Below are positions 2-11,595 of a DNA stretch of 15,177 bases, in pieces. The notes below the pieces were generated by a model, which made no database searches, was not told where the DNA came from, and saw only the letters and a list, made by a program, of their open reading frames with translations. Origin of the DNA: Thermodesulfobacteriota bacterium (GTDB taxonomy: Bacteria > Desulfobacterota_D > UBA1144); contig JAQWMJ010000054.1 of the NCBI GenBank assembly GCA_029246845.1, positions 1 through 15,177 of the forward strand, read 5' to 3'. Each line of letters begins with the position of its first letter. Within the stretch, counting starts at the first letter, position 1. The translations under genes and the position numbers were made by a program.

Positions 2-1560
2 GGAACTCTTACACTCTCTGGAACTAATACCTATACTGGCACCACTACTATAAATAATGGAACCCTTACAGTAAGTGGAGCACTATCTGATAGTAGTTCG
101 TTAAGTGTTGCCTCTGGAAAAACGTATACCCTTAGTGCGAACGACACTGTTGCTTCAATTGCAGGTGCAGGAACTATTGCAACTGGTGGATATACTCTTA
201 CGGCTGGAGGTGGCGGTAGTAGTACAACATTTTCAGGTGTGATATCAGGAAGTGGTGGTCTTACAAAAGCAGGAAGCGGAACTCTTACACTCTCTGGAAC
301 TAATACCTATACTGGTGCTACAACTATAAGTGCAGGAGCCTTGACAGTAAGTGGAGCACTATCTGATAGCACTGCAGTAAGTGTTACTTCTGGAAAAACT
401 TATACTCTTGGTGCGAATGATACTGTTAGTTCAATCTCAGGTGCAGGAAATATAGTAAATGGTGGATATACTCTAACAGCCGGCAATTCTAGTAACCAGA
501 CATTTTCAGGTGTGATATCAGGAAGTGGTGGTCTTACAAAAGCAGGAAGTGGAACTCTTACACTCTCAGGAACTAATACCCATACTGGTACCACTAGTGT
601 AAGTGCAGGGACTCTTACAGTAAGTGGATCTCTATCTGATAGTAGTTCGTTAAGTGTTTCCTCTGGAGCAACTTATACTCTTGGTGCGAATGATACTTTT
701 GCTTCGATTGCAGGTTCAGGAACTATTGCAACTGGTGGATACACTCTAACGATGGGTGACGGTAATGATCATACATTTGCAGGTGTAATATCAGGAACCG
801 GTGGTCTTACAAAACAAGGAGGAGGAAAACTCACATTGTCAGGGACTAATACTTATACAGGTGCTACGACTTTAAATACAGGCATTTTAAGTGTAACGGG
901 ATCTCTATCTGACAGCACTGCATTTACTGGTGCTGCTGGATCAACTTATGCAATGTATGTAGCTGATGAAATTGGTTCAATTGCAGGTGGAGGAAGTATA
1001 GCAAATGGTGGCTATGGTCTTACGGTTGGAGGAGATAACAGTAGTACGACCTACTCAGGTGTAATAAGTGGTACTGGTGGTCTTACAAAAGCAGGAAGTG
1101 GAACTCTTACATTAACTGGAGTTAATACTTATACTGGCGGTACGACTATAGAGGGTGGCTCTGTTGGTGTTGCTACTGCCTCTGGCGTTGACACTAATCC
1201 ATTTGTAGATACTACTTCAATGTCTATTTCTTCTGGAGCAAGTTTTATCTACAATTTAAGTACCAATCAAACATTGTCAGGTGTAATAAGTGGAGCTGGT
1301 GGTGTCGCACACACAGGAAGCGGGACTCTTACGCTCTCCGGAACTAATACCTATACAGGCGATACAACTATAAGCGAAGGTGACATAAATGTTACAGGCA
1401 AATTAGGCAATGGTAGTTATAGTGGGGACATGACAATAGCGTCTGGTTCCCAATTTATCTATTCATCCGATAGTGATCAAACATTATCAGGCACTATATC
1501 AGGTGCTGGAGTTCTGGTAAATCACAAATCTGGCAGTGGCACATTGACTTTATCAGGTAC
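2..1560 (+). repeat. Intragenic tandem repeats: GxLTL(S/T)G anchors at 2, 278, 551, 824, 1100, 1322 and 1538 (periods 92, 91, 91, 92, 74, 72 aa)
   Basis: Near-identical DNA blocks such as ggtggtcttacaaaagcaggaag(c/t)ggaactcttaca recur at 273-276-nt spacing. The last two units are shorter and more diverged. Confidence 0.9.
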
Positions 1561-1810
1561 TGTTTCGTATACCGGAAGTCAGGAGCTATCTTTGGCTGCA
1601 GGCCAATCAATTCAATTAGTTGAAAATAATAAACCTATAAATAATGATAGTTTGTCCAAAATAGATTTGCTGAATAATATCGATGAAGGATTTGGCAATT
1701 ATGCTCACTTTGACATAGAAATAAATCCTTTTAACGAAATAAAAGAGCAATTAATTGTATTCGATAATAAAGAAAATAATGACCTAACAAGTTTATTGGT
1801 GGAAAAATAA
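2..1810 (+). CDS. 5'-truncated large exoprotein/adhesin with autotransporter-associated beta-strand repeats (PATR-like); probable TpsA-type passenger
   Basis: The frame is open from base 2 (GTLTLSGTNTYTGTTTINNG...), so the GTG at 239 is not the true start. It has repeated ISGSGGLTKAGSGTLTLSGTNTYTGxTTI motifs and ends in a ~65-aa acidic tail with no translocator barrel. A TpsB gene lies downstream on the same strand. Confidence 0.85.
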   Translation, partial: GTLTLSGTNTYTGTTTINNGTLTVSGALSDSSSLSVASGKTYTLSANDTVASIAGAGTIATGGYTLTAGGGGSSTTFSGVISGSGGLTKAGSGTLTLSGTNTYTGATTISAGALTVSGALSDSTAVSVTSGKTYTLGANDTVSSISGAGNIVNGGYTLTAGNSSNQTFSGVISGSGGLTKAGSGTLTLSGTNTHTGTTSVSAGTLTVSGSLSDSSSLSVSSGATYTLGANDTFASIAGSGTIATGGYTLTMGDGNDHTFAGVISGTGGLTKQGGGKLTLSGTNTYTGATTLNTGILSVTGSLSDSTAFTGAAGSTYAMYVADEIGSIAGGGSIANGGYGLTVGGDNSSTTYSGVISGTGGLTKAGSGTLTLTGVNTYTGGTTIEGGSVGVATASGVDTNPFVDTTSMSISSGASFIYNLSTNQTLSGVISGAGGVAHTGSGTLTLSGTNTYTGDTTISEGDINVTGKLGNGSYSGDMTIASGSQFIYSSDSDQTLSGTISGAGVLVNHKSGSGTLTLSGTVSYTGSQELSLAAGQSIQLVENNKPINNDSLSKIDLLNNIDEGFGNYAHFDIEINPFNEIKEQLIVFDNKENNDLTSLLVEK

Positions 1811-1880: not shown

Positions 1881-2537
1881 ATGATTAGATTTAAGTTTTT
1901 TATTTTCTTTTGTTTTATAATTTTAAACTTAGCTAGTCTATCGTATTCACAAAATGAAACCGACAATGTTCACAATCTCCTTTCTGAGTCAATAAAAATG
2001 ATTGACAATAGGATGTATTCTGATGCAGAAAGGTCAATAAATTCTATAATTGAACTCTCCCCGGACTTTAAACCAGCAATTTACTACAGAGCTTTATCTA
2101 GAATGCATTTAAAAAAAATAGATTTAGCCGAAAAAGACTTTCTTTCTGTCCTGAATAGTGGGGAAAGCTTTCCTGATTTGTTTTTCTATCTTGGTTTAGT
2201 AAGCGAAATGCAAGAAAAAAATACTGATGCAATTAATTATTATTCAAAAGCCCTAACTCTTGATCCAATCAATTCAAGATATCACAACAATAGAGGCATG
2301 ATTTATGCCAAGAATGGAGAATTTAATCTTGCGTTTGAAGATGTAAATAAAGCGATTGCGATTGATCCTCAATATGCTAGAGCCTATTTCAATAGGGCTC
2401 TATATTTCTATTACATAAAAAAAGACAAAAAACTAGCAATAAATGATATGAAAAAATCGAAAAATTTTTACTCGCTTCAAAAGCGACTTGCTGAATCAAA
2501 TTTAGCACAGGAGGCGTTGTCCAAATGGATGGATTAA
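1881..2537 (+). CDS. Exported tetratricopeptide-repeat (TPR) protein
   Basis: N-terminal signal peptide (MIRFKFFIFFCFIILNLASLSYS) and TPR consensus segments (YYSKALTLDPINSRYHNNRGMIY; VNKAIAIDPQYARAYFNRA). Confidence 0.9.
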   Translation: MIRFKFFIFFCFIILNLASLSYSQNETDNVHNLLSESIKMIDNRMYSDAERSINSIIELSPDFKPAIYYRALSRMHLKKIDLAEKDFLSVLNSGESFPDLFFYLGLVSEMQEKNTDAINYYSKALTLDPINSRYHNNRGMIYAKNGEFNLAFEDVNKAIAIDPQYARAYFNRALYFYYIKKDKKLAINDMKKSKNFYSLQKRLAESNLAQEALSKWMD

Positions 2538-4906
2538 GAAAAGTATTAATTGCCATTTTTATCTTGTTTTTTGTTAGTTGCCTTGGTGGAGGTGGCGAAA
2601 AAAAAGCAGCTGGCAGTTCTGGGAGTGGAGGAGGATCAACGGCCTGTTCTTATCGAGGAGATGATTATTCTGGTTGTTATCCAGCTCAATATGCAACATC
2701 TACCTATGAAACAGCGGAGTATAACAACGCCTATGGATTGGGCGATACGAGTGCATCAACTGCGTACTCACGAGAACTTACAGGCTCCGGTGTAAAAGTT
2801 GGAATATTTGATACAGGAATAGATACGACTCATAGTGAATTTAGTGGAAAAACTATTACCGGTTACAACTACGAATCAAGTAATACTTCGGTGACTGACG
2901 GCAATGGCCATGGGACACATGTTGCTGGAATAATTGCAGCGAAGAAAGATGGTGTGGGTATGCACGGCGTCGCTTATGGAGTTACACATATTTATAGCTA
3001 TGACATATTTAACGACAGTGGAACTTTTCAGGGTGCATATAATACAACAATTCCTAGTGCAATTTCAAAAGCTATAACAGCTGGTGTTAAGGTTATTAAT
3101 AATAGTTGGGGTACAACTACAGCCATAAATGCTCGCTCAAAAAGCTCTTGGGAGTCGTCATATAGTACCTCAATTACATCCTACGAATCGCTTGCTACTA
3201 ATAATATTATCAGTGTCTGGGCGGCAGGAAATCAAGGAGCAACTCAAGTTAGTTTTGAGGCGGGTATTCCACATTATTGGACCGGTACCGCGGACCATTG
3301 GATTGCGGTAGTCGCCATTGATACTGATGGAAAAGAGACATCATATACGAATCGGTGTGGGGTGGCGGCCGCCTGGTGTATATCAGCACCTGGCCATGCA
3401 ATTTATAGTGTTGAGGATGGTGGAACATATAATAATAAGAATGGAACCTCTCAGGCAGCGCCACATGTAGCTGGAGCAATCGCAATACTAATAGAAACTT
3501 TTCCAAATCTTACTGCAAAGCAGGTAGTAAGTAGACTCCTTGCTACAGCTTCAACAAGTGGTTTGACAGGGTACTATGGAGAATCCTACTCTGAGGCAAT
3601 TTTTGGCGTAGGCAAAATGGACTTGGATAAAGCGACGAAACCAATAGCTGTCCTCGGACTTTCAGTTGCCGGTACAAATACATCTAATTCAACAAGCTAT
3701 ACCCTTAACTCAACAAAGCTGAGGCTTTCCAAGGTTTTTGGTCAAAATAGAGTAGTCAATAGAATAATTCAAAGAAAAACTAATTTTTCCAAACAAGCTG
3801 ATAAAACGATGATGGCGAGCTTTGATTCATATGATAATGCAATATTTTATGTAAACATGCTCTCTCTCACTAGCGAATCGATTTATCAACCTTTTGATCT
3901 TGATTCTCTTTTATTTAGAGATGTCCAAGAGCAAAAAATATTTGATATTGGAAATTTAAAGATGTATGGAATTTTGCACCTTAATGATTCTGATAAATAT
4001 TCTCCTCAATCTCCCTTTAAAAATATAAGAGCTGATCTTCATGTTAATAAAAATCTTGAATTAAAATACAATTATTCAGAGGCACGAAGATACTATCTTT
4101 TATCACGAAACTCTGAAAATTTTATCAAATCTCCCGTCATATATGACGCTTTTCATAATCCTTACATTGGATTGAACGGAGAATCGTTTAGTTTGGAAAG
4201 CATATATACCCTAAACGGAAATTCAGATATCTCTTTTTTTTATGAATATGAGAAATATTACGAAGATTTAGAATCTAGCCTTGATGACAGAAGAGGTTTT
4301 TCATCAATAAAAGGAATCAAAATTAATCTGGCATCGAATGAGAAGAACAAGTTTTCTTTTTTCTTCGGTAGAATGGATGAGGAGGGTTCTTTTCTAGGAT
4401 CCACAACTTCAGGTGCGTTTAGATTAAAAGATAGTACGAAAACTAATATTTTTGGATCAGCTTTCCAAACATATTTTAATGAATCAACAAAATTATTTTT
4501 GACAAGTTTCTATGGAAATACAAAAGTTGATCCACATCCAGAATCCTTATTTAGTGATTTCGAAGCGATTAATTCTTTTTCCTGGAGCCTAGGTTTGTTG
4601 CACGATAAGTTTATTAGTCATAACTCTTCTATAGGTGCAATAGTGCATCAACCTATTAGAGCAGAGAGCGGGTCTTTTTCACTTGAGATTCCATTGTACT
4701 CTGATTACTTAGGTAATATTTATTCGTATAATCAGAAATACGAACTAGAGCCGAATGGAAGAGAAATCAATTATGAGCTATTTTACGAAAAAGATTTAAG
4801 TAACTATAAAATGAGATTTGCATCTTTATTTATTAAAGACGGTGGTCATCTGGCATATGGTGATTTGGAAAAAGTCTTTACGATAGAACTTAAAAGTAAT
4901 TTTTAA
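2525..4906 (+). CDS. Lipoprotein S8 (subtilisin-family) serine protease with C-terminal putative outer-membrane beta-barrel (autotransporter-like)
   Basis: Lipobox FFVSC followed by a Gly/Ser linker. Catalytic motifs FDTG, HGTHVAG, AAGN and GTSQAAPHVAG are present. The C-terminal ~400 aa is rich in amphipathic aromatic strands and ends in Phe. Confidence 0.9.
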   Translation: MDGLRKVLIAIFILFFVSCLGGGGEKKAAGSSGSGGGSTACSYRGDDYSGCYPAQYATSTYETAEYNNAYGLGDTSASTAYSRELTGSGVKVGIFDTGIDTTHSEFSGKTITGYNYESSNTSVTDGNGHGTHVAGIIAAKKDGVGMHGVAYGVTHIYSYDIFNDSGTFQGAYNTTIPSAISKAITAGVKVINNSWGTTTAINARSKSSWESSYSTSITSYESLATNNIISVWAAGNQGATQVSFEAGIPHYWTGTADHWIAVVAIDTDGKETSYTNRCGVAAAWCISAPGHAIYSVEDGGTYNNKNGTSQAAPHVAGAIAILIETFPNLTAKQVVSRLLATASTSGLTGYYGESYSEAIFGVGKMDLDKATKPIAVLGLSVAGTNTSNSTSYTLNSTKLRLSKVFGQNRVVNRIIQRKTNFSKQADKTMMASFDSYDNAIFYVNMLSLTSESIYQPFDLDSLLFRDVQEQKIFDIGNLKMYGILHLNDSDKYSPQSPFKNIRADLHVNKNLELKYNYSEARRYYLLSRNSENFIKSPVIYDAFHNPYIGLNGESFSLESIYTLNGNSDISFFYEYEKYYEDLESSLDDRRGFSSIKGIKINLASNEKNKFSFFFGRMDEEGSFLGSTTSGAFRLKDSTKTNIFGSAFQTYFNESTKLFLTSFYGNTKVDPHPESLFSDFEAINSFSWSLGLLHDKFISHNSSIGAIVHQPIRAESGSFSLEIPLYSDYLGNIYSYNQKYELEPNGREINYELFYEKDLSNYKMRFASLFIKDGGHLAYGDLEKVFTIELKSNF

Positions 4907-4907
4907 A

Positions 4908-5336
4908 ATGAGATTTCTTACCCTATTTTTTTTTTCGATTATTTTATTAATCTCTTGTTCTAAAAGTGAAAAGATTTCTATAATACTAAAAGATTCTCAA
5001 TGTGGCACCGTAGCTCAAAAACAACATATTGTTGTAGATGGTGATGAAGAATGGGAGGCTCTTTATAAAAATCTTTTACAAACAAACTCACTTAACAACT
5101 TAAGTGATCAAGAACTAGGAGTTTTTATCTTTCTTGGAGAAAGATCTTCAAGTGGTTATTCACTTGATTTTATAGAGTCTTATACAACTGACAAAGAATT
5201 CATTATTGTCGTGTACGAAATAGAGCCAAAAGAATTAGATCCTGTATTAACTGTAATGACCTATCCTTGTATAGCACTAAAAATTCCTAAAACAGATAAA
5301 GAAATAAAAATTATATTTAAAGAGTCTAGGGAATGA
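4908..5336 (+). CDS. Lipoprotein with protease complex subunit PrcB C-terminal-like domain
   Basis: Lipobox LLISC. The pattern FIFLGERSSSGYSL...IIVVYEIEP...VLTVMTYPCIALKIPK fits the PrcB_C family as I recall it. It starts 1 nt after the protease stop. Confidence 0.75.
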   Translation: MRFLTLFFFSIILLISCSKSEKISIILKDSQCGTVAQKQHIVVDGDEEWEALYKNLLQTNSLNNLSDQELGVFIFLGERSSSGYSLDFIESYTTDKEFIIVVYEIEPKELDPVLTVMTYPCIALKIPKTDKEIKIIFKESRE

Positions 5337-5342
5337 TAAGTC

Positions 5343-7016
5343 ATGTTTGCTAAAATCTTAATATTTCTATTAATTACACTGACAATTAGTCAATTTGCGC
5401 ATTCAATGGATGATTCCGGGATCCTTGAAAAGACATTACCCTTCAAAGAGAGGAAACAGACGGGAACATTTAGGAATGTGCCCAGAATAGATGAAGAAAT
5501 AAAAACTAAAGACACGGGTCCTCAAGTGGTTATTGATAAGATTACAATAAAAGGAAACTCTTTAATTAAAGATGAAGAAATATTTTTGATTACCAATAAA
5601 TATTTAGAAAAAAGTCTTAATCTTCAAAATCTTAATGCCATTATAAATGAAATTGGTTTTTATTACAGAAAAAATGGATACTGGGCACGAGCAATACTCC
5701 CCGAGCAAGATATAGAGAATGGACAGTTATTGATTGAAATTTATGAAGGAATTTTGGGGAGTGTAGAGATAGAAAAAAAAGATAAAAATATCCGTTTTTC
5801 AGAAAAGAGATCTAAAGCATTTATTCTATATGGACAAAAGAAAAGAACTCCTATCAACATCCTTAAGCTTGAAAACGCAGTAAAAGAGCTAAGCAATGTG
5901 CCTGGTATTGAATCATCAATTGTATTAAAGGAAGGAGAAAATACTAGCGAGACGGATGTAGTAATAAAATTATCAAACACTCCTATGATAAATGGACTAA
6001 TAAAATTTGATAATCATGGAACAAGATCAACGGGTAGGAGTAGAGGGATTTTCTCAGTTAATCTGGACGGCCTATTCAATATTGGCGATAGATTTTTATT
6101 CCAATATCTACAAGTACGCGATATAAAATATAAAGCATATGGACTAAGCCTTCCCATTCTTAATGATGGCACAAAGATTAAATATATGTACACAAATATG
6201 AATTACGAGTTGGGATATCCTTTTAAGTCTCTAGATGCTGAAGGAAAATCTAATACCAAGAAATTCTCGATATCTAAACCTTTAATCTTTTTAAATAATA
6301 TCAATGTAAGATTTGATTACGATTTTTTAATTAGTGAATATTCAAATGAATCTTTAGGAGCTACAATATCAGATAAAAGTATTAAATCATCTGTATTATC
6401 TTCAATTTTAACTAATTCTGATTCTTTTATGGGAGAGGGAACTACTTGGGGTATTTTGAGCTTTACAAATGGCAAGCTGGATCTTTCGGGGCAACAGTCA
6501 AATCTTAATTCTGATTCTCTAGGTGCTAAAACTAATGGACATTTTAATAAAATATTTTCGTCTTTCACTCGTATACAAAGATTAGGTAGAAGAACTACTT
6601 TTTGGCTAATGACGGATTTTCAATTCTCATTTAAAAATCTAGATTCTAGCCAAAAACTATCGCTTGGAGGTGGAAACGGTATAAGAGCATATCCTGTATC
6701 GGAAGCAAATGGTGATAATGCAATTATTATAAAATCTGAGATACATCATTATTTAAGCAAAGGTATTGAAGGTTTAATCTTTTTTGATTATGGTCGCGTA
6801 AAACTTTACAAGAACACTTGGACTCCAACTACAAATAATTATTCTCTCAAAGGCGCTGGTATCGGGATAATCTCAAGATCTTTTTATGATGCTACATTAA
6901 AAACTTATTTGGCTAGAAAGGTAGGGTCGAATAAAGGGGCGGATACAAATGGTAATGATAACGACGGAACAGATAATACCTTTACTTTTTGGATCGAAGC
7001 TTTTAAGAATTTTTAG
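5343..7016 (+). CDS. ShlB/FhaC/HecB family two-partner secretion transporter (TpsB)
   Basis: Signal peptide, POTRA-type segment (ITIKGNSLI...YYRKNGYWARAILPEQDIENGQLLIEIYEG), DNHGTRSTG barrel start, loop-6 motif LGGGNGIRAY (VRGY variant), FFDYG and terminal Phe. Confidence 0.92.
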   Translation: MFAKILIFLLITLTISQFAHSMDDSGILEKTLPFKERKQTGTFRNVPRIDEEIKTKDTGPQVVIDKITIKGNSLIKDEEIFLITNKYLEKSLNLQNLNAIINEIGFYYRKNGYWARAILPEQDIENGQLLIEIYEGILGSVEIEKKDKNIRFSEKRSKAFILYGQKKRTPINILKLENAVKELSNVPGIESSIVLKEGENTSETDVVIKLSNTPMINGLIKFDNHGTRSTGRSRGIFSVNLDGLFNIGDRFLFQYLQVRDIKYKAYGLSLPILNDGTKIKYMYTNMNYELGYPFKSLDAEGKSNTKKFSISKPLIFLNNINVRFDYDFLISEYSNESLGATISDKSIKSSVLSSILTNSDSFMGEGTTWGILSFTNGKLDLSGQQSNLNSDSLGAKTNGHFNKIFSSFTRIQRLGRRTTFWLMTDFQFSFKNLDSSQKLSLGGGNGIRAYPVSEANGDNAIIIKSEIHHYLSKGIEGLIFFDYGRVKLYKNTWTPTTNNYSLKGAGIGIISRSFYDATLKTYLARKVGSNKGADTNGNDNDGTDNTFTFWIEAFKNF

Positions 7017-7895: not shown

Positions 7896-8609
7896 CTATT
7901 TAAGGAGTCTGTCTTCTTCCCATTCGCCTTCATGAACATAACCTTGTTTAGGGCCTTCACCCCAAGTATAAGATCCCCTTCCATGCTTTTTATTGTTTTT
8001 ATATTCTCCTTCATATCTTGTGCCATCAGAATAAGTACTTATTCCTTTACCATGTCTTTTGCCATCCTTATATTCTCCTACATACTTTTCACCGGTTGGC
8101 TTAGTGTAAGTTCCCATACCATTCATTTTATCGTCTTTCCATTCACCTACATATTCATGTCCATTATTGTGACCTTTTCCCCAGGTATAAATTCCGCTTC
8201 CATGTTTCTTATTGTCTTTCCATTCACCTATATATTTATGACCTTCCATGGGACCTTTTCCCCAGACATAAGTTCCTTTTCCATGTTTCTTCCCATTCTT
8301 TATTCCACCCTCATATCTAGTACCATCTGACCAAATATTTATTCCTTTTCCATGTCTTATATTGTTTCTCCATTCACCTACATATTTTTCCCCATCTTCC
8401 CACTTACCACCTAACTTATTTGAAGACGTGTACGTTCCTTTTCCATGGTAGGTCCCGTTCTTCCACTCACCTACATATTTGCCTCCTGGAAAAGAAAGAA
8501 CTCCTTCGCATTTATCCCATACAAGTGGATCACCACCCTCGCACATAGGTAAAGAATATGAGTTAATTGAAATTAAAAAGAAGAATAGTAGACTATTTAG
8601 GTTCTTCAT
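7896..8609 (-). CDS. Exported MORN-repeat protein
   Basis: Signal peptide and about 7-8 YxGEWKxxKxHGxGxYxW repeats. Confidence 0.9.
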   Translation of the reverse strand: MKNLNSLLFFFLISINSYSLPMCEGGDPLVWDKCEGVLSFPGGKYVGEWKNGTYHGKGTYTSSNKLGGKWEDGEKYVGEWRNNIRHGKGINIWSDGTRYEGGIKNGKKHGKGTYVWGKGPMEGHKYIGEWKDNKKHGSGIYTWGKGHNNGHEYVGEWKDDKMNGMGTYTKPTGEKYVGEYKDGKRHGKGISTYSDGTRYEGEYKNNKKHGRGSYTWGEGPKQGYVHEGEWEEDRLLK

Positions 8610-8690: not shown

Positions 8691-8732
8691 CTAACAAATT
8701 TGAATTTAATGATTAATAAATGGAGAAAATAT

Positions 8733-9764
8733 ATGAATATTATTAATAAAGTCTTATTAACTTTAGTTCTACTTTTAGGGATGAACATGAACTTACTTGC
8801 TGGTGGAGATCCTTCAGAAATAGTTATGAAAACTAGAGCAGATTCCCATGCTCCGATTTCTATTATGGGTGACCATACACATAAGGAAGGACAAGTAATG
8901 TTTTCGTATAGATATATGACAATGGGTATGGATGGATACCAATCAGGCTCTTCTTCTTCGAACTATACAAAGGCTAGAACTAAACCATTAGGCGGCAATT
9001 ATATGACAGTGCCAGAAGAGATGACTATGAATATGCACATGATAGGTGCCATGTATGCTCCATCAGATGATATAACTTTGATGATAATGGGTAGCTATTT
9101 AGATAGTGAAATGAAAGTTAAAAAACATTCTAATAAAAAGAAAAAAACTTTAGAATCTAGTGGAAATGGAGATACTAAAGTATCTATACTTAAAAATCTG
9201 GCTCATAATGATAACGCCAAACTTCATGCTTCTTTAGGTCTTAGTTTGCCAACAGGGTCAATTTCAAAAAAGGATATTATGTTTGGATCAAAGGAAGAGA
9301 CCTTAGGTTACAATATGCAATTGGGATCTGGAACCTATGACGCCTTACCTGGATTGACTTACGTATATTTTGAAGATAATTATTCTTACGGCACTCAAAT
9401 ATCAAGTGTTTTAAGGATTGGTAAGAACTCTAAAGACTATGCTCTAGGAAATATATATAAAAGTAATATTTGGTTTGTTATACCTTTTAATGACAAACAA
9501 ACCTCCTTTTCTATTGCTTCACAATTTAAATTTCAAGGTAAAATTAAAGGGAACCATAAAGACATTAAGACTATAATGAGTTTTGCTCAAGATAGAGATT
9601 CCTCTGGAAGTAAAAGAATTGATATTTCCATAGGTGCTAATCATATTTTCCCTAATAAAATAAGGGCTAGTGTTGAGTATATAATGCCAATATATAATGA
9701 TGTTAACTCTGTTCAGCTTGATTCAGAAAATGCTCTAATGTTTGGCTTAGGATTCGCATACTAA
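8733..9764 (+). CDS. Met/His-rich outer-membrane beta-barrel 'transporter' (MetA-pathway/phenol-degradation-like porin family)
   Basis: GGAGA RBS before ATG 8733, signal peptide, motifs RADSHAPISIMGDHTHKEG, GNGDTKV, LGLSLPTG and MQLGSGTYD, and an aromatic C-terminus (GLGFAY). Confidence 0.75.
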   Translation: MNIINKVLLTLVLLLGMNMNLLAGGDPSEIVMKTRADSHAPISIMGDHTHKEGQVMFSYRYMTMGMDGYQSGSSSSNYTKARTKPLGGNYMTVPEEMTMNMHMIGAMYAPSDDITLMIMGSYLDSEMKVKKHSNKKKKTLESSGNGDTKVSILKNLAHNDNAKLHASLGLSLPTGSISKKDIMFGSKEETLGYNMQLGSGTYDALPGLTYVYFEDNYSYGTQISSVLRIGKNSKDYALGNIYKSNIWFVIPFNDKQTSFSIASQFKFQGKIKGNHKDIKTIMSFAQDRDSSGSKRIDISIGANHIFPNKIRASVEYIMPIYNDVNSVQLDSENALMFGLGFAY

Positions 9765-9826
9765 TTTATCAATTTGTTAATATTTGTAAAATGTCCAGTA
9801 CTGAGTGTTCTGTTCTATAATTATCC

Positions 9827-9855
9827 TTGACAATTTTTTGTATAAGTGATATTAA
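9827..9855 (+). promoter_or_regulatory. Putative sigma70 promoter
   Basis: Perfect TTGACA (9827-9832), 17-nt spacer, then TG-n-TATTAA (9847-9855; the -10 is imperfect). The predicted start near 9862 lies just before the pseudoknot array. Confidence 0.5.
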
Positions 9856-9863
9856 TTCTATAT

Positions 9864-9990
9864 ACCATAGATCATGGTTTAAAAGATCCTCATGGAACAT
9901 GAGTGAAAAGTTCTCCATAAGTCATGGGAACAAGACTCGCATAGAACATGCGTTAAAAGTTCAAATATTTCTCCAAAGGGGGTATTTGAA
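9864..9990 (+). ncRNA. Putative structured RNA leader: four tandem H-type pseudoknots plus an RBS-sequestering hairpin
   Basis: Units ACCAT-A-GATC-ATGGT-TTAAAA-GATC / CTCAT-G-GAAC-ATGAG-TGAAAA-GTTC / TCCAT-A-AGTC-ATGGG-AACAA-GACT / CGCAT-A-GAAC-ATGCG-TTAAAA-GTTC, with compensatory changes in both stems. A hairpin TTCAAATA...TATTTGAA follows at 9960-9990. Confidence 0.65.
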
Positions 9991-9991
9991 T

Positions 9992-10213
9992 ATGAAACTT
10001 TTGTTAAAGAGGCAGGTTAGAGTCAATGTAGCCAGCAAGGCTAATCTAGTTAATAAAGCTAGGGTGGCTAATATGCTTAAGGTCGCAACTGATTCAAGAA
10101 AACCAGCAAATTCAAAATTTATTCATCTTTCTGCTATAAAAGCTTACCAGCGTCAAAAAGCTTGGAAGTTAAATGTTAGAAAGATCTCTAAAATTCAGTT
10201 TGCTTTAGTTTAA
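9992..10213 (+). CDS. Hypothetical small highly basic protein (73 aa)
   Basis: AAGGGGG RBS 9 nt before ATG 9992. It has 18 K/R and a single acidic residue, and is followed by a terminator-like hairpin. I recognise no family. Confidence 0.5.
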   Translation: MKLLLKRQVRVNVASKANLVNKARVANMLKVATDSRKPANSKFIHLSAIKAYQRQKAWKLNVRKISKIQFALV

Positions 10214-10231
10214 TATAAGCATGGATTATGT

Positions 10232-10275
10232 GCAGGGGGTTTTAACTTTGAAATTTCCTGCCATTTGAATTTTAT
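10232..10275 (+). terminator. Probable terminator-like hairpin
   Basis: GCAGGGGGTTTTA...TGAAATTTCCTGC (10232-10261) pairs with several G-U wobbles on the + strand and is followed by a T-rich tract. Confidence 0.5.
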
Positions 10276-10311
10276 ATTTACTTTCTTCACACTAGCTTTT
10301 ACATTTGTATC

Positions 10312-11595
10312 ATGAGAAATGAACTTAAGGTCCTATTAGCCAATGTATCTTTAATTTCTTCAATTGCGACACTAGTATATGTTTACTTTAAAAATTTCCT
10401 ACCAAAATCAAAGATAAGATTGGAATATGTACTTTTCTCCCTTCCGCTTACTTGGGCTATTATTTCAAATATTTTATATATTAATGGTTGGGCAAGAGAC
10501 AGTCTTTGGGACATTAACGTAGTTTATTGTGCCGACTTAGCATATTCTCTTGGGGCTAGCCCTCAAACCGATTGGTTTGTTAATGCATCATGTCAGGAGT
10601 CTATTCCATTACAGTTTACATACCTAAAACTACTATTAGATATAGTTCCCTTTTCACTTTTTGAATATGACTTCTTTGAAAAAGTTTGGGTGATATTTCT
10701 TGGACTATCCGCATTAGGTTATGGATTTATATCAAAGAAGCTATTTGAATTAGAAATAAATTATTTTTTCATTTTGGTATTTATTCTAATAGCTTATCAG
10801 GGATCAAATATTGTATCTCTTCAGGCTGGGAACATAGCCGTACCAATCTACTTACTAGTATTTTTTGGAATTCTTTTATTAAAGCATGACAAGTACCAGA
10901 TAATTTTCTTCCCTATAGTCGCCTTTGCGACTTTCTTAAAATTTCATTTGGCCTTATTCCTCCTTATACCATTTATGGTTCAGAAATTTTTCAATTTCAA
11001 AGGATATGTTTTATTCTCCATAACTCTCTCTTCTTTATTTGGATTAAATTATTTGCTACATGGACCATTTATTAATGAATGGCTTGTTAATCTGAAGTAT
11101 GTCGATATGGGCTTAGCACCGATCTTTGCGGAAATGGATTTCTTAAAATCTTTATGGACCACCAATGGTGAGGCTGCAATGTCCAAGGTTCAGTTTAATG
11201 CTTTATGTAAAATTTTTATATTCCCCTTCTTCTTTTTAAATCTAATTTTCTTTAGAAAGTATTTGATTAATAAAGTCTCAGATAAAGAATTCTTCAATGT
11301 ACTCTTGATACTATCAACATTTGTTTTTGTTTTAGTACTACCAAGACTTAAAGTCTATGATTTTTTTATTATATCTTGTGTCTCAATAAAAATTTATTTG
11401 GACTCAATTGATACTATAGTTAGTAAAGATTTTTTACTAAAAATGATATCAATTTTAATTATTATTTTATTTTATTTGTCATCTATCTACTGGAGACCTC
11501 AATGGGACCTTACAAATATTAGCTATTATTATGTATTATCTATTTACTTTCTATATCAAGCTATGGTTATTAGAAAGATAAAGGTAAAATATTAA
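10312..11595 (+). CDS. Polytopic membrane protein, GT-C fold glycosyltransferase family 87 (DUF2029)-like
   Basis: About 10 or more hydrophobic segments, an early periplasmic loop with Asp (WDINVVY), FTY, SLQAGNI and the FATFLKF Lys motif typical of GT87. Confidence 0.6.
   Translation: MRNELKVLLANVSLISSIATLVYVYFKNFLPKSKIRLEYVLFSLPLTWAIISNILYINGWARDSLWDINVVYCADLAYSLGASPQTDWFVNASCQESIPLQFTYLKLLLDIVPFSLFEYDFFEKVWVIFLGLSALGYGFISKKLFELEINYFFILVFILIAYQGSNIVSLQAGNIAVPIYLLVFFGILLLKHDKYQIIFFPIVAFATFLKFHLALFLLIPFMVQKFFNFKGYVLFSITLSSLFGLNYLLHGPFINEWLVNLKYVDMGLAPIFAEMDFLKSLWTTNGEAAMSKVQFNALCKIFIFPFFFLNLIFFRKYLINKVSDKEFFNVLLILSTFVFVLVLPRLKVYDFFIISCVSIKIYLDSIDTIVSKDFLLKMISILIIILFYLSSIYWRPQWDLTNISYYYVLSIYFLYQAMVIRKIKVKY

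Follow-up and report, generated by a model that had tools for sequence, protein, structure and literature searches.

The window, by which we mean the whole 15,177-nt stretch of DNA analysed here, contains four short units set end to end ahead of a small open reading frame (ORF), and an earlier note had read them as mini-pseudoknots of an undescribed structured RNA. The locus poses the question of whether the units form a genuine RNA element and, if they do, what that element does for the gene that follows. One possibility is that the array is a leader that responds to a signal and controls translation. Alternatively, it may be a docking platform for protein, a constitutive structure, or part of an already known riboswitch, or the pattern may not be an RNA element at all.

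Four abutting units with covarying helices

Both direct reading of the sequence and a script descriptor resolve positions 9864-9962 into four units of 24-25 nt with no spacer between them. Each unit is a potential H-type pseudoknot with a 5-bp S1, a 1-nt L1, a 4-bp S2, and an A-rich L3 (Table 1). The details given in the earlier note for the units, their S1 and S2 stems, loop 4-mers, and linkers all proved correct, and the distal 4-mers (GATC, GTTC, GACT, and GTTC) are indeed the exact complements of the loop 4-mers (GATC, GAAC, AGTC, and GAAC). A loose single-unit descriptor gave 19 matches in the 1.04-Mb genome, which is the background level (15-26 in 10 shuffles). The window holds the sole site in that genome with four abutting units, and we calculate from the single-unit rate that four units in register would arise by chance about once per 1e9 genomes. 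Since Tandem Repeats Finder reports no repeat at 9864-9962, the units have a common structure with differing sequence and are not simple duplicates.

Table 1. Positions of the promoter, array units, hairpins, and ORF within the window
Feature	Position	Strand	Details
Sigma-70-type promoter (read from sequence)	9827..9855	+	-35 TTGACA at 9827-9832; 17-nt spacer; extended -10 TGaTATTAA (TG at 9847-9848, hexamer at 9850-9855)
Unit 1 (direct reading and descriptor)	9864..9888	+	S1 ACCAU/AUGGU; L1 A; S2 GAUC; L3 UUAAAA; S2' GAUC
Unit 2 (direct reading and descriptor)	9889..9913	+	S1 CUCAU/AUGAG; L1 G; S2 GAAC; L3 UGAAAA; S2' GUUC
Unit 3 (direct reading and descriptor)	9914..9937	+	S1 UCCAU/AUGGG (U-G wobble); L1 A; S2 AGUC; L3 AACAA; S2' GACU
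Unit 4	9938..9962	+	S1 CGCAU/AUGCG; L1 A; S2 GAAC; L3 UUAAAA; S2' GUUC, also the base of the next hairpin
Sequestering hairpin	9959..9991	+	14 bp; buries Shine-Dalgarno GGGGGU at 9978-9983; present in the MFE and centroid folds
Small basic ORF, P0001	9992..10213	+	73 aa; ATG at 9992; C-terminal ~30 residues are the conserved module
Terminator-like hairpin	10232..10271	+	13 pairs, then a weak T run; closes the small transcription unit

We collected further units with a regular expression that demanded CAT..ATG, an A-rich linker, and one G, and that did not require complementarity. It returned 266 unit occurrences in arrays, representing 79 distinct sequences. The earlier note's reading depended on homologues keeping S2 complementarity, and they do: S2 pairs at 4/4 positions in 74 of the 79 distinct units and at 3/4 in the other 5. 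For the alignment, 64 distinct units of the canonical 25-nt length were retained, and 15 off-length units, all of them with 4/4 S2 pairs, were dropped. When the pseudoknot (((((.[[[[)))))......]]]] was tested on these 64 units, 97.4% of 576 cells were paired, compared with 69.3 +/- 1.4% in shuffles, and the covariation score was 0.671, compared with 0.123 in shuffles and reached by 0/500 of them, although the sequences are related and these shuffle statistics therefore overstate their independence. In a control in which the 3' partners were slid by 1-3 columns, pairing was 25-38%. Double-sided changes were present in 5/9 pairs, namely three of the four S2 pairs, each of those with four to six pair types, and two of the five S1 pairs. 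The units thus contain two interleaved helices that both covary, as an H-type pseudoknot should, and the claim that they are covarying mini-pseudoknots is upheld by orthologues as well as paralogues in several lineages.

The orthologues of the window's own units illustrate these changes. S2/S2' of unit 1 goes from GAUC/GAUC to GGUC/GACC, AGUC/GACU, or GAGC/GCUC; that of unit 2 from GAAC/GUUC to GAGC/GCUC, GGGC/GCCC, or GUAC/GUAC; and that of unit 3 from AGUC/GACU to UGUC/GGCA or GGUC/GACU. The invariance of CAU/AUG, of C10-G22, and of AAAAG is partly imposed by the search pattern, and one unit (L182) carries GAU/AUC instead of CAU/AUG, a compensatory flip. The earlier note had also worried that a 1-nt loop over a 4-bp stem might force an inner pair to open. 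In H-type geometry, 1 or 2 nt suffice to cross the deep groove, and the worry is not a serious one for units with an L1; it does hold for the 10/79 distinct units that have a 4-nt loop and no L1, in which one pair would need opening.

Regarding the strand on which the structure forms, the preference for the + strand expressed in the earlier note agrees with several results. The + strand folds at -33.9 kcal/mol (z -2.96; 1/200 shuffles equally good) and the - strand at -28.8 kcal/mol (z -1.84; 9/200 shuffles equally good). In addition, 20 G-U cells of the alignment would turn into A-C mismatches on the complementary strand, and without exception the arrays have a gene downstream in the same orientation. 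Given these G-U cells and the orientation of the downstream genes, we conclude that the RNA is the + strand transcript.

Carriers of the array and the genes that follow it

A DNA search of 41 related genomes matched 14, comprising 13 of 18 in the family plus the window's own genome, and outside the genus the DNA-level conservation is limited to the array and the sequestering hairpin, at ~80% identity. We scanned more widely with a two-unit IUPAC pattern, taking one genome per species, and obtained 86 stretches, of which 83 are arrays and 3 are chance matches without complementarity; 204 of the 213 units have 4/4 S2 pairs. Arrays are carried by the window's marine family, whose genomes are of ~1 Mb, by SAR86, by marine Alphaproteobacteria known from single-cell genomes and MAGs, by a Magnetovibrio MAG, and by phage-like contigs. 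With the same pattern, IMG/VR gave 14 contigs and marine metagenomes at least 120; the array was not found in isolated phage genomes. A covariance model of two units built without the pseudoknot (R1) matches 15/19 genomes of the window's family and 0/101 in other families of the phylum. Given this pattern and the presence of arrays in the other lineages, the element follows streamlined marine plankton more than it follows phylogeny, and the phage-like copies may provide a route for its transfer.

The genes behind arrays of 1-4 units encode glutamate synthase, glutamine synthetase, a porin together with an ammonium transporter in one operon, or tiny peptides; the Pfam families are GATase_2 for gltB, Gcw_chp and then Ammonium_transp for the operon, and Gln-synt_N/C for glutamine synthetase. 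By motif regex, the 86 genome matches lie ahead of the glutamate synthase large subunit, gltB (29), a porin with a glutamine aptamer in between (19), an unrelated ~42-aa alphaproteobacterial peptide (19), and peptides with the C-terminal module of the window protein, the YQ-type (12), or belong to truncated alphaproteobacterial loci (2), Magnetovibrio (2), and chance matches (3). On a complete SAR86 chromosome, the glutamine aptamer RF01739 follows three units ahead of porin-amtB and a single unit ahead of a glutamine synthetase gene; another SAR86 genome has two units, and no aptamer, ahead of gltB. Some genera of the window's family have a second, two-unit array ahead of gltB, and no units were found upstream of the window genome's own gltB. 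As a correction to an earlier reading, the informative context of the arrays is nitrogen assimilation (gltB, glnA, porin-amtB, and tiny peptides).

The window's P0001 has relatives in 13 clusters, all unnamed or "hypothetical." A C-terminal module of ~30 residues, the core of which reads AL(K/R)xYQ(K/R) followed by a basic stretch, can be aligned across 23 peptides drawn from the window's family, from metagenomes, and from viral contigs. Peptides with this module are 29-73 aa long, and the shortest (29-35 aa) are little beyond the module itself. The peptide relatives matched no Pfam family, and their profile had no PDB match.

The last strand of the array and the start site

In the window, the promoter, array, sequestering hairpin, small ORF, and terminator make up a compact unit between unrelated genes. 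The near-consensus promoter ends 8 bases ahead of unit 1, and from its position transcription is predicted to start at about 9862-9864, which would place the array at, or within 2 nt of, the 5' end of the transcript. This promoter was left unlisted by a consensus scan because the rule of the scan demands T at the sixth -10 position. RNA-library contigs of four metatranscriptome studies lie over the leader and ORF (9788-10036, 9903-10237, 9882-10339, and 9860-10009), with no coverage of 9600-9787; such contigs show no start, strand, or level, may stem from DNA carry-over, and prove nothing by the parts they leave uncovered. One of them begins at 9788, upstream of the predicted start. Two other coding possibilities were rejected: a 128-aa ORF (9827-10213) that spans the array, whose frame is not kept between genera, and a mini-ORF with its AUG in S1' and UAA in the linker, which is not conserved across linker variants.

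The array and the hairpin have a strand in common. The first four bases of the sequestering hairpin are S2' of unit 4, paired there with 9988-9991, and the hairpin ends one base short of the ATG. Its energy is -11.0 kcal/mol and falls to -4.2 without the four S2' pairs, a loss of 6.8 kcal/mol. The hairpin is kept in 15 aligned leaders with little covariation. This sharing of the last unit's S2' with a hairpin that sequesters the start site is found in the window, the SAR86 gltB leader, and the phage-like cassettes. In SAR86 gltB leaders, the region of the Shine-Dalgarno and start codon is paired with S2' (GGGC or GGAC) together with the CAUGUUACU that comes after it, and in the phage-like cassettes the hairpin GUUC-AAAUA...UAUUUGAA is nearly identical to that of the window. 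In alphaproteobacterial peptide leaders, the strand that pairs with the AUG starts at or directly after S2'.

Because the last S2' strand is common to the sequestering hairpin, we read the array as a cis-acting translational ON switch. S2' of unit 4 (GUUC) could pair either with the loop GAAC, which would form the pseudoknot, or with 9988-9991, which would form the base of the sequestering hairpin. Without help, the hairpin is expected to prevail and keep translation low, since the S1 hairpins of the units are of marginal stability (-2.1 to -3.6 kcal/mol each) beside the -11.0 kcal/mol of the sequestering hairpin. An effector that stabilised the pseudoknots would remove the base of the hairpin, expose the start site, and turn translation ON. 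Given that the units abut, S1 and S2 of successive units could also stack end to end and fold cooperatively. The signal would be nitrogen status, in view of the genes under the family's control, and our best guess is that the effector acts by direct binding of a small metabolite, L-glutamine first, with 2-oxoglutarate or glutamate as alternatives and a protein also conceivable. The earlier note's idea of an RNA that may bind a ligand or protein at more than one site agrees with these data. Being ON at nitrogen sufficiency would make sense for glutamate synthase as a consumer of glutamine, and for a peptide that resembles the glutamine-synthetase-inactivating factors in function. The array is probably a new nitrogen-linked RNA switch. 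For the fuller reading, in which it is the 5' leader of a small-basic-protein mRNA and belongs to a cis-regulatory family of 1-4 pseudoknot units that work as effector-stabilised translational ON switches for nitrogen status, we estimate a probability of about 45%.

Several observations count against parts of this switch. With the pseudoknot formed, 10 bp of the hairpin would still cover the Shine-Dalgarno, and the ON effect may therefore be partial. A unit also has little from which to build a ligand pocket: its L1 is a single base that is not conserved, and the bases that are conserved (CAU/AUG, the C-G junction pair, and the A run) may serve structure alone or be recognised by a protein; with so few unpaired conserved bases per unit, the array could have a protein partner or a purely structural role. 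Moreover, as far as can be judged from its sequence, the window genome's array would control one gene only, whose function has no assignment.

The possibility of a protein partner leads to a different reading, which we consider unlikely though worth weighing at length, namely that the array is a protein-binding platform on which each pseudoknot docks an RNA-binding protein that reports nitrogen status or regulates its own synthesis. In one version, the small basic peptide would bind its own leader, much as arginine-rich peptides bind hairpins or ToxN binds ToxI repeats. The repetitive, abutting, minimal units with their few unpaired conserved bases are consistent with such a platform, the helix junction and A run could offer a surface to protein, and strongly basic peptides travel with the array as a compact cassette, also on phage-like contigs. 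However, the YQ-type peptide family was not found in two array-bearing SAR86 genomes (one of them a complete chromosome) or in one array-bearing alphaproteobacterial genome, and the alphaproteobacterial peptide is unrelated to it (hhalign probability 0.1). The peptide thus appears to be an output of the element and not its general partner, and the data examined contain no co-occurring candidate protein.

A precedent also argues against the platform. Guanidine-II (mini-ykkC) RNAs are two plain hairpins with ACGR loops that dimerise, repeated modules acting jointly as a translational switch, and they later proved to be a guanidine riboswitch. Guanidine-II and the array are both tiny repeated modules seemingly too simple for an aptamer, although guanidine-II has no pseudoknots and serves other genes. 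In a passage of the paper that treats it, mini-ykkC is described as once thought protein-binding for its "small and repetitive hairpin architecture" (PMC2864571).

Rather less probable is that the array is a constitutive structure that senses nothing, for instance a stabiliser against ribonuclease, a ribosome standby site or enhancer, or a tuner that folds according to temperature or Mg2+. Its place at the extreme 5' end of the predicted transcript, the marginal stability of the units' S1 hairpins, and the fact that some SAR86 S2' strands read GGAG, which is Shine-Dalgarno-like, would all fit. Yet a general stabiliser would not be confined to the leaders of gltB, glnA, porin-amtB, and small peptides across unrelated lineages, and its last strand would not be tied to the start-site hairpin in lineage after lineage.

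That the array is an accessory domain of the glutamine riboswitch, and not an independent element, strikes us as improbable. In the SAR86 porin-amtB and glnA leaders, the units do lie directly 5' of RF01739, which scores 63-66 bits directly 3' of the units in loci L019, L026, L030, and L119. But RF01739 is found in 0/21 genomes of the window's lineage, where arrays stand alone, and it has no match in the window at E up to 10, nor at its gathering score (35 bits). The SAR86 gltB leader, the alphaproteobacterial leaders, and the phage-like cassettes likewise lack the aptamer and have a sequestering hairpin of their own. Where the units and the validated glutamine aptamer share one SAR86 leader, the units adjoin RF01739 and do not replace it, which points to a different input or an accessory role there and not to a second glutamine sensor.

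Finally, it is very improbable that the palindromes are DNA operators for a repressor or that the pattern is a coding or repeat artefact: each S1 is a palindrome with a 5-bp spacer just downstream of the promoter and the 128-aa ORF formally spans the array, but interleaved S2/S2' covariation and G-U wobbles would be meaningless in duplex DNA, the 24-25-nt unit lengths break any reading frame, unit number and spacing vary between genera, protein conservation is limited to the ORF from 9992, and there is no repeat that Tandem Repeats Finder can report.

Known RNAs and the link to nitrogen assimilation

The translational switch that we favour invites comparison with the glutamine riboswitches of type 1 (glnA RNA, RF01739) and type 2 (glutamine-II or Downstream-peptide motif, RF01704), which the arrays resemble in marine distribution, tandem occurrence, and gene classes. 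For the glnA RNA (RF01739) and the Downstream-peptide motif, the classes named in the relevant passages are glutamine synthetase, glutamate synthase, ammonium transporters, and short ORFs of 17-100 aa (PMC2864571). The arrays differ in that they have no sequence or covariance-model similarity to these RNAs, their units measure ~25 nt as opposed to 53 or more, the units abut, and the carriers are heterotrophs and phage-like contigs, not cyanobacteria. RF01704 had no covariance-model match in the window or the related loci searched. Like RF01704, the array lies in the 5' UTR of a 17-100-aa ORF (73 aa in the window and 29-73 aa elsewhere), but the downstream DUF4278 (IF17-like) protein of that motif is missing, given that DUF4278 matches 0/23 peptides at E up to 10. 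The cyanobacterial glutamine riboswitch is described as switching on gifB translation and preceding short ORFs (PMC6212724), and the glutamine-II riboswitch as built round a pseudoknot, with triplex character and coaxial helices (PMC6698751). The array may be a functional analogue of the cyanobacterial glutamine riboswitches that turn on small glutamine-synthetase-inactivating proteins, with the peptide in the role of the latter. A complex prediction for the peptide with two copies of the genome's glutamine synthetase scored 0.00 and 0.00, was run without controls, and is evidence neither way.

In geometry, the array has other likenesses. The preQ1-I riboswitch is a very small H-type pseudoknot in which an A-rich 3' segment runs alongside S1 and a 3' strand is linked to the accessibility of the ribosome-binding site. 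The array has a similar small H-type design; it lacks a loop between S2 and S1', is multimerised, and goes with genes for nitrogen assimilation and not queuosine, so that the queuosine-gene association of preQ1-I is absent here, and the Rfam model of preQ1-I had no match. Luteoviral -1 frameshift pseudoknots such as that of BWYV have an S1 of ~5 bp, an L1 of 1-2 nt, an S2 of 3-4 bp, and an A-rich L3 of 6-7 nt that forms minor-groove triples. Their compact geometry is like that of the array, but each stands alone within a coding region of a plant RNA virus, where its target is the elongating ribosome, whereas the arrays lie in bacterial 5' leaders.

Tandem pseudoknot-forming units also occur in the upstream pseudoknot domain of tobamoviruses, which lies in a eukaryotic viral 3' UTR, and in ToxI, whose near-identical 36-nt direct repeats are followed by a terminator and then by an endoribonuclease of ~170 aa that cuts and binds the repeats. 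Of the viral and ToxI analogies that the earlier note had drawn, the geometric likeness stands, and membership in the ToxIN systems fails on every feature tested. The window's units differ and covary, and Tandem Repeats Finder sees none of the near-identical repeats of ToxI; there is no terminator between array and ORF; and the ORF encodes 73 aa without a Pfam match in place of a ~170-aa endoribonuclease, while arrays also precede gltB, glnA, and porin-amtB.

We found no published description of the array motif in Rfam 15, in full-text searches of the literature, or in passages of large motif surveys. The absence of a matching Rfam family, which the earlier note had claimed, holds for the window and 16 related loci, with SpF22 (17.5 bits, E 0.51, against a gathering score of 55) as the lone match in the window. 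Passages of the Pelagibacter motif survey contain no such motif (PMC2704228), the main text of the 224-motif paper has no matching term, supplements aside (PMC5737381), and the gltD motif of Brewer et al. is confined to Negativicutes (PMC8632094). The window array stands on its own with its own expression platform, and such arrays, with both helices covarying, occur in at least four bacterial lineages and in phage-like DNA. The array is linked to gltB, glnA, and a new small-peptide family, and it would belong with those translational leaders of the nitrogen regulon that are based on pseudoknots. No other bacterial leader is known to us to be made of abutting minimal pseudoknots, and this one would be the first; should it bind a metabolite, the aptamer would be unusually small. 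The family of 29-73-aa peptides lacks annotation.

The most abundant bacteria of the surface ocean include SAR86 and the small-genome marine Alphaproteobacteria, and, to our knowledge, the regulation of nitrogen assimilation in these groups is poorly understood. For cultured SAR11, passages of a published study report that GlnA and GltBD protein levels shift without a change in mRNA and that the PII system is absent (PMC3870248). A conserved leader element ahead of gltB, glnA, amtB, and tiny peptides is a concrete candidate for the missing post-transcriptional control, and one that is directly testable.

A bolder extension, which we think doubtful, is that each ~25-nt unit is the smallest known natural metabolite aptamer and that arrays bind glutamine, or 2-oxoglutarate as a signal long sought, cooperatively via end-to-end stacking. 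They would then be a third, convergent class of nitrogen-status riboswitch. In SAR86, marine Alphaproteobacteria, and other streamlined bacterioplankton, this class would switch on glutamate synthase and a new family of ~30-residue peptides that modulate glutamine synthetase, and viruses like the pelagiphages would use the cassette they carry to redirect the nitrogen metabolism of their hosts. Viral manipulation of this kind is suggested by the phage-borne cassettes themselves. Three viral or metagenome cassettes adjoin HNH endonuclease genes (PHROG 59), and a flanking gene of one viral contig resembles genes of the pelagiphages HTVC027P and Kolga, with 65-72% identity.

Loci carrying the units in other bacteria

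We found two composite leaders, in which the ~25-nt pseudoknot units stand 5' of the glutamine riboswitch aptamer RF01739, on one complete SAR86 chromosome (L119 and L108; see the table). At L119, the unit loop ACUCC is repeated 3' of the aptamer, where it faces the Shine-Dalgarno sequence GGAG.

Marine Alphaproteobacteria displayed another arrangement, with two units located 5' of a conserved peptide of ~42 aa (L110:1340-1471 and about 40 similar loci). This peptide carries an ENRWG motif and had no Pfam match, and it is unrelated to the window's peptide family, whose members (29-73 aa, the 73-aa window protein among them) share a C-terminal module of ~30 residues.

The Magnetovibrio MAG contained units at three loci (L106, L118 and L121), with three or four per locus, and these units pair an S2 of UGGC with an S2' of GCCA. 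A conserved stretch of ~90 nt follows the units at all three loci, the genes downstream differ from locus to locus, and no Rfam match was found at any of the three. This three-locus form could represent either a multicopy sRNA or a version of the element that is mobile.

Limits of the search pattern

Two marine metagenome contigs (L189 and L243) held long arrays of 17-18 unit-like repeats, in which S2 pairs at only 2-3 of its 4 positions (TTTC versus GTGA or GCGA). These arrays are probably a different, satellite-like repeat that was picked up by our search pattern. In addition, one unit at L182:417-496 reads GAU/AUC in place of the otherwise invariant CAU/AUG. The third S1 pair is flipped there by compensatory changes, and we therefore conclude that the "invariant" core is partly a product of the search pattern.

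Other genes in the window

No Pfam family was found for either of the ORFs that flank the cassette (the four-unit array with its promoter, hairpins and 73-aa ORF). Further upstream, the MORN-repeat gene contains a tandem repeat present in 2 copies with 83% identity.

Features of the SAR86 composite leaders and of the window
Feature	Location	Strand	Content
L119 composite leader	G041:C1:924928-927947		one unit + RF01739, then 326-aa glutamine synthetase
L108 composite leader	G041:C1:388477-391496		three units + RF01739, then Gcw_chp porin + ammonium transporter
PATR-repeat ORF	2-1810	+	passenger-associated transport repeats
273-nt tandem repeat	2-1150		within PATR-repeat ORF
Export gene cluster	1881-7016	+	TPR protein, S8 subtilase (793 aa), PrcB_C protein, ShlB/POTRA outer-membrane transporter
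MORN-repeat protein gene	7896-8609	-	contains 81-nt tandem repeat
81-nt tandem repeat	8128-8291		inside MORN-repeat gene
Cassette-flanking ORF	8700-9764	+	354 aa
Cassette-flanking ORF	10312-11595	+	427 aa

At the start of the window, the period of 273 nt recurs in 3-4 copies with 76-81% identity, and the surrounding ORF appears to encode a surface protein of autotransporter-like type that underwent a recent internal duplication. The gene cluster that follows it has the appearance of a two-partner-secretion-type system exporting a protease.
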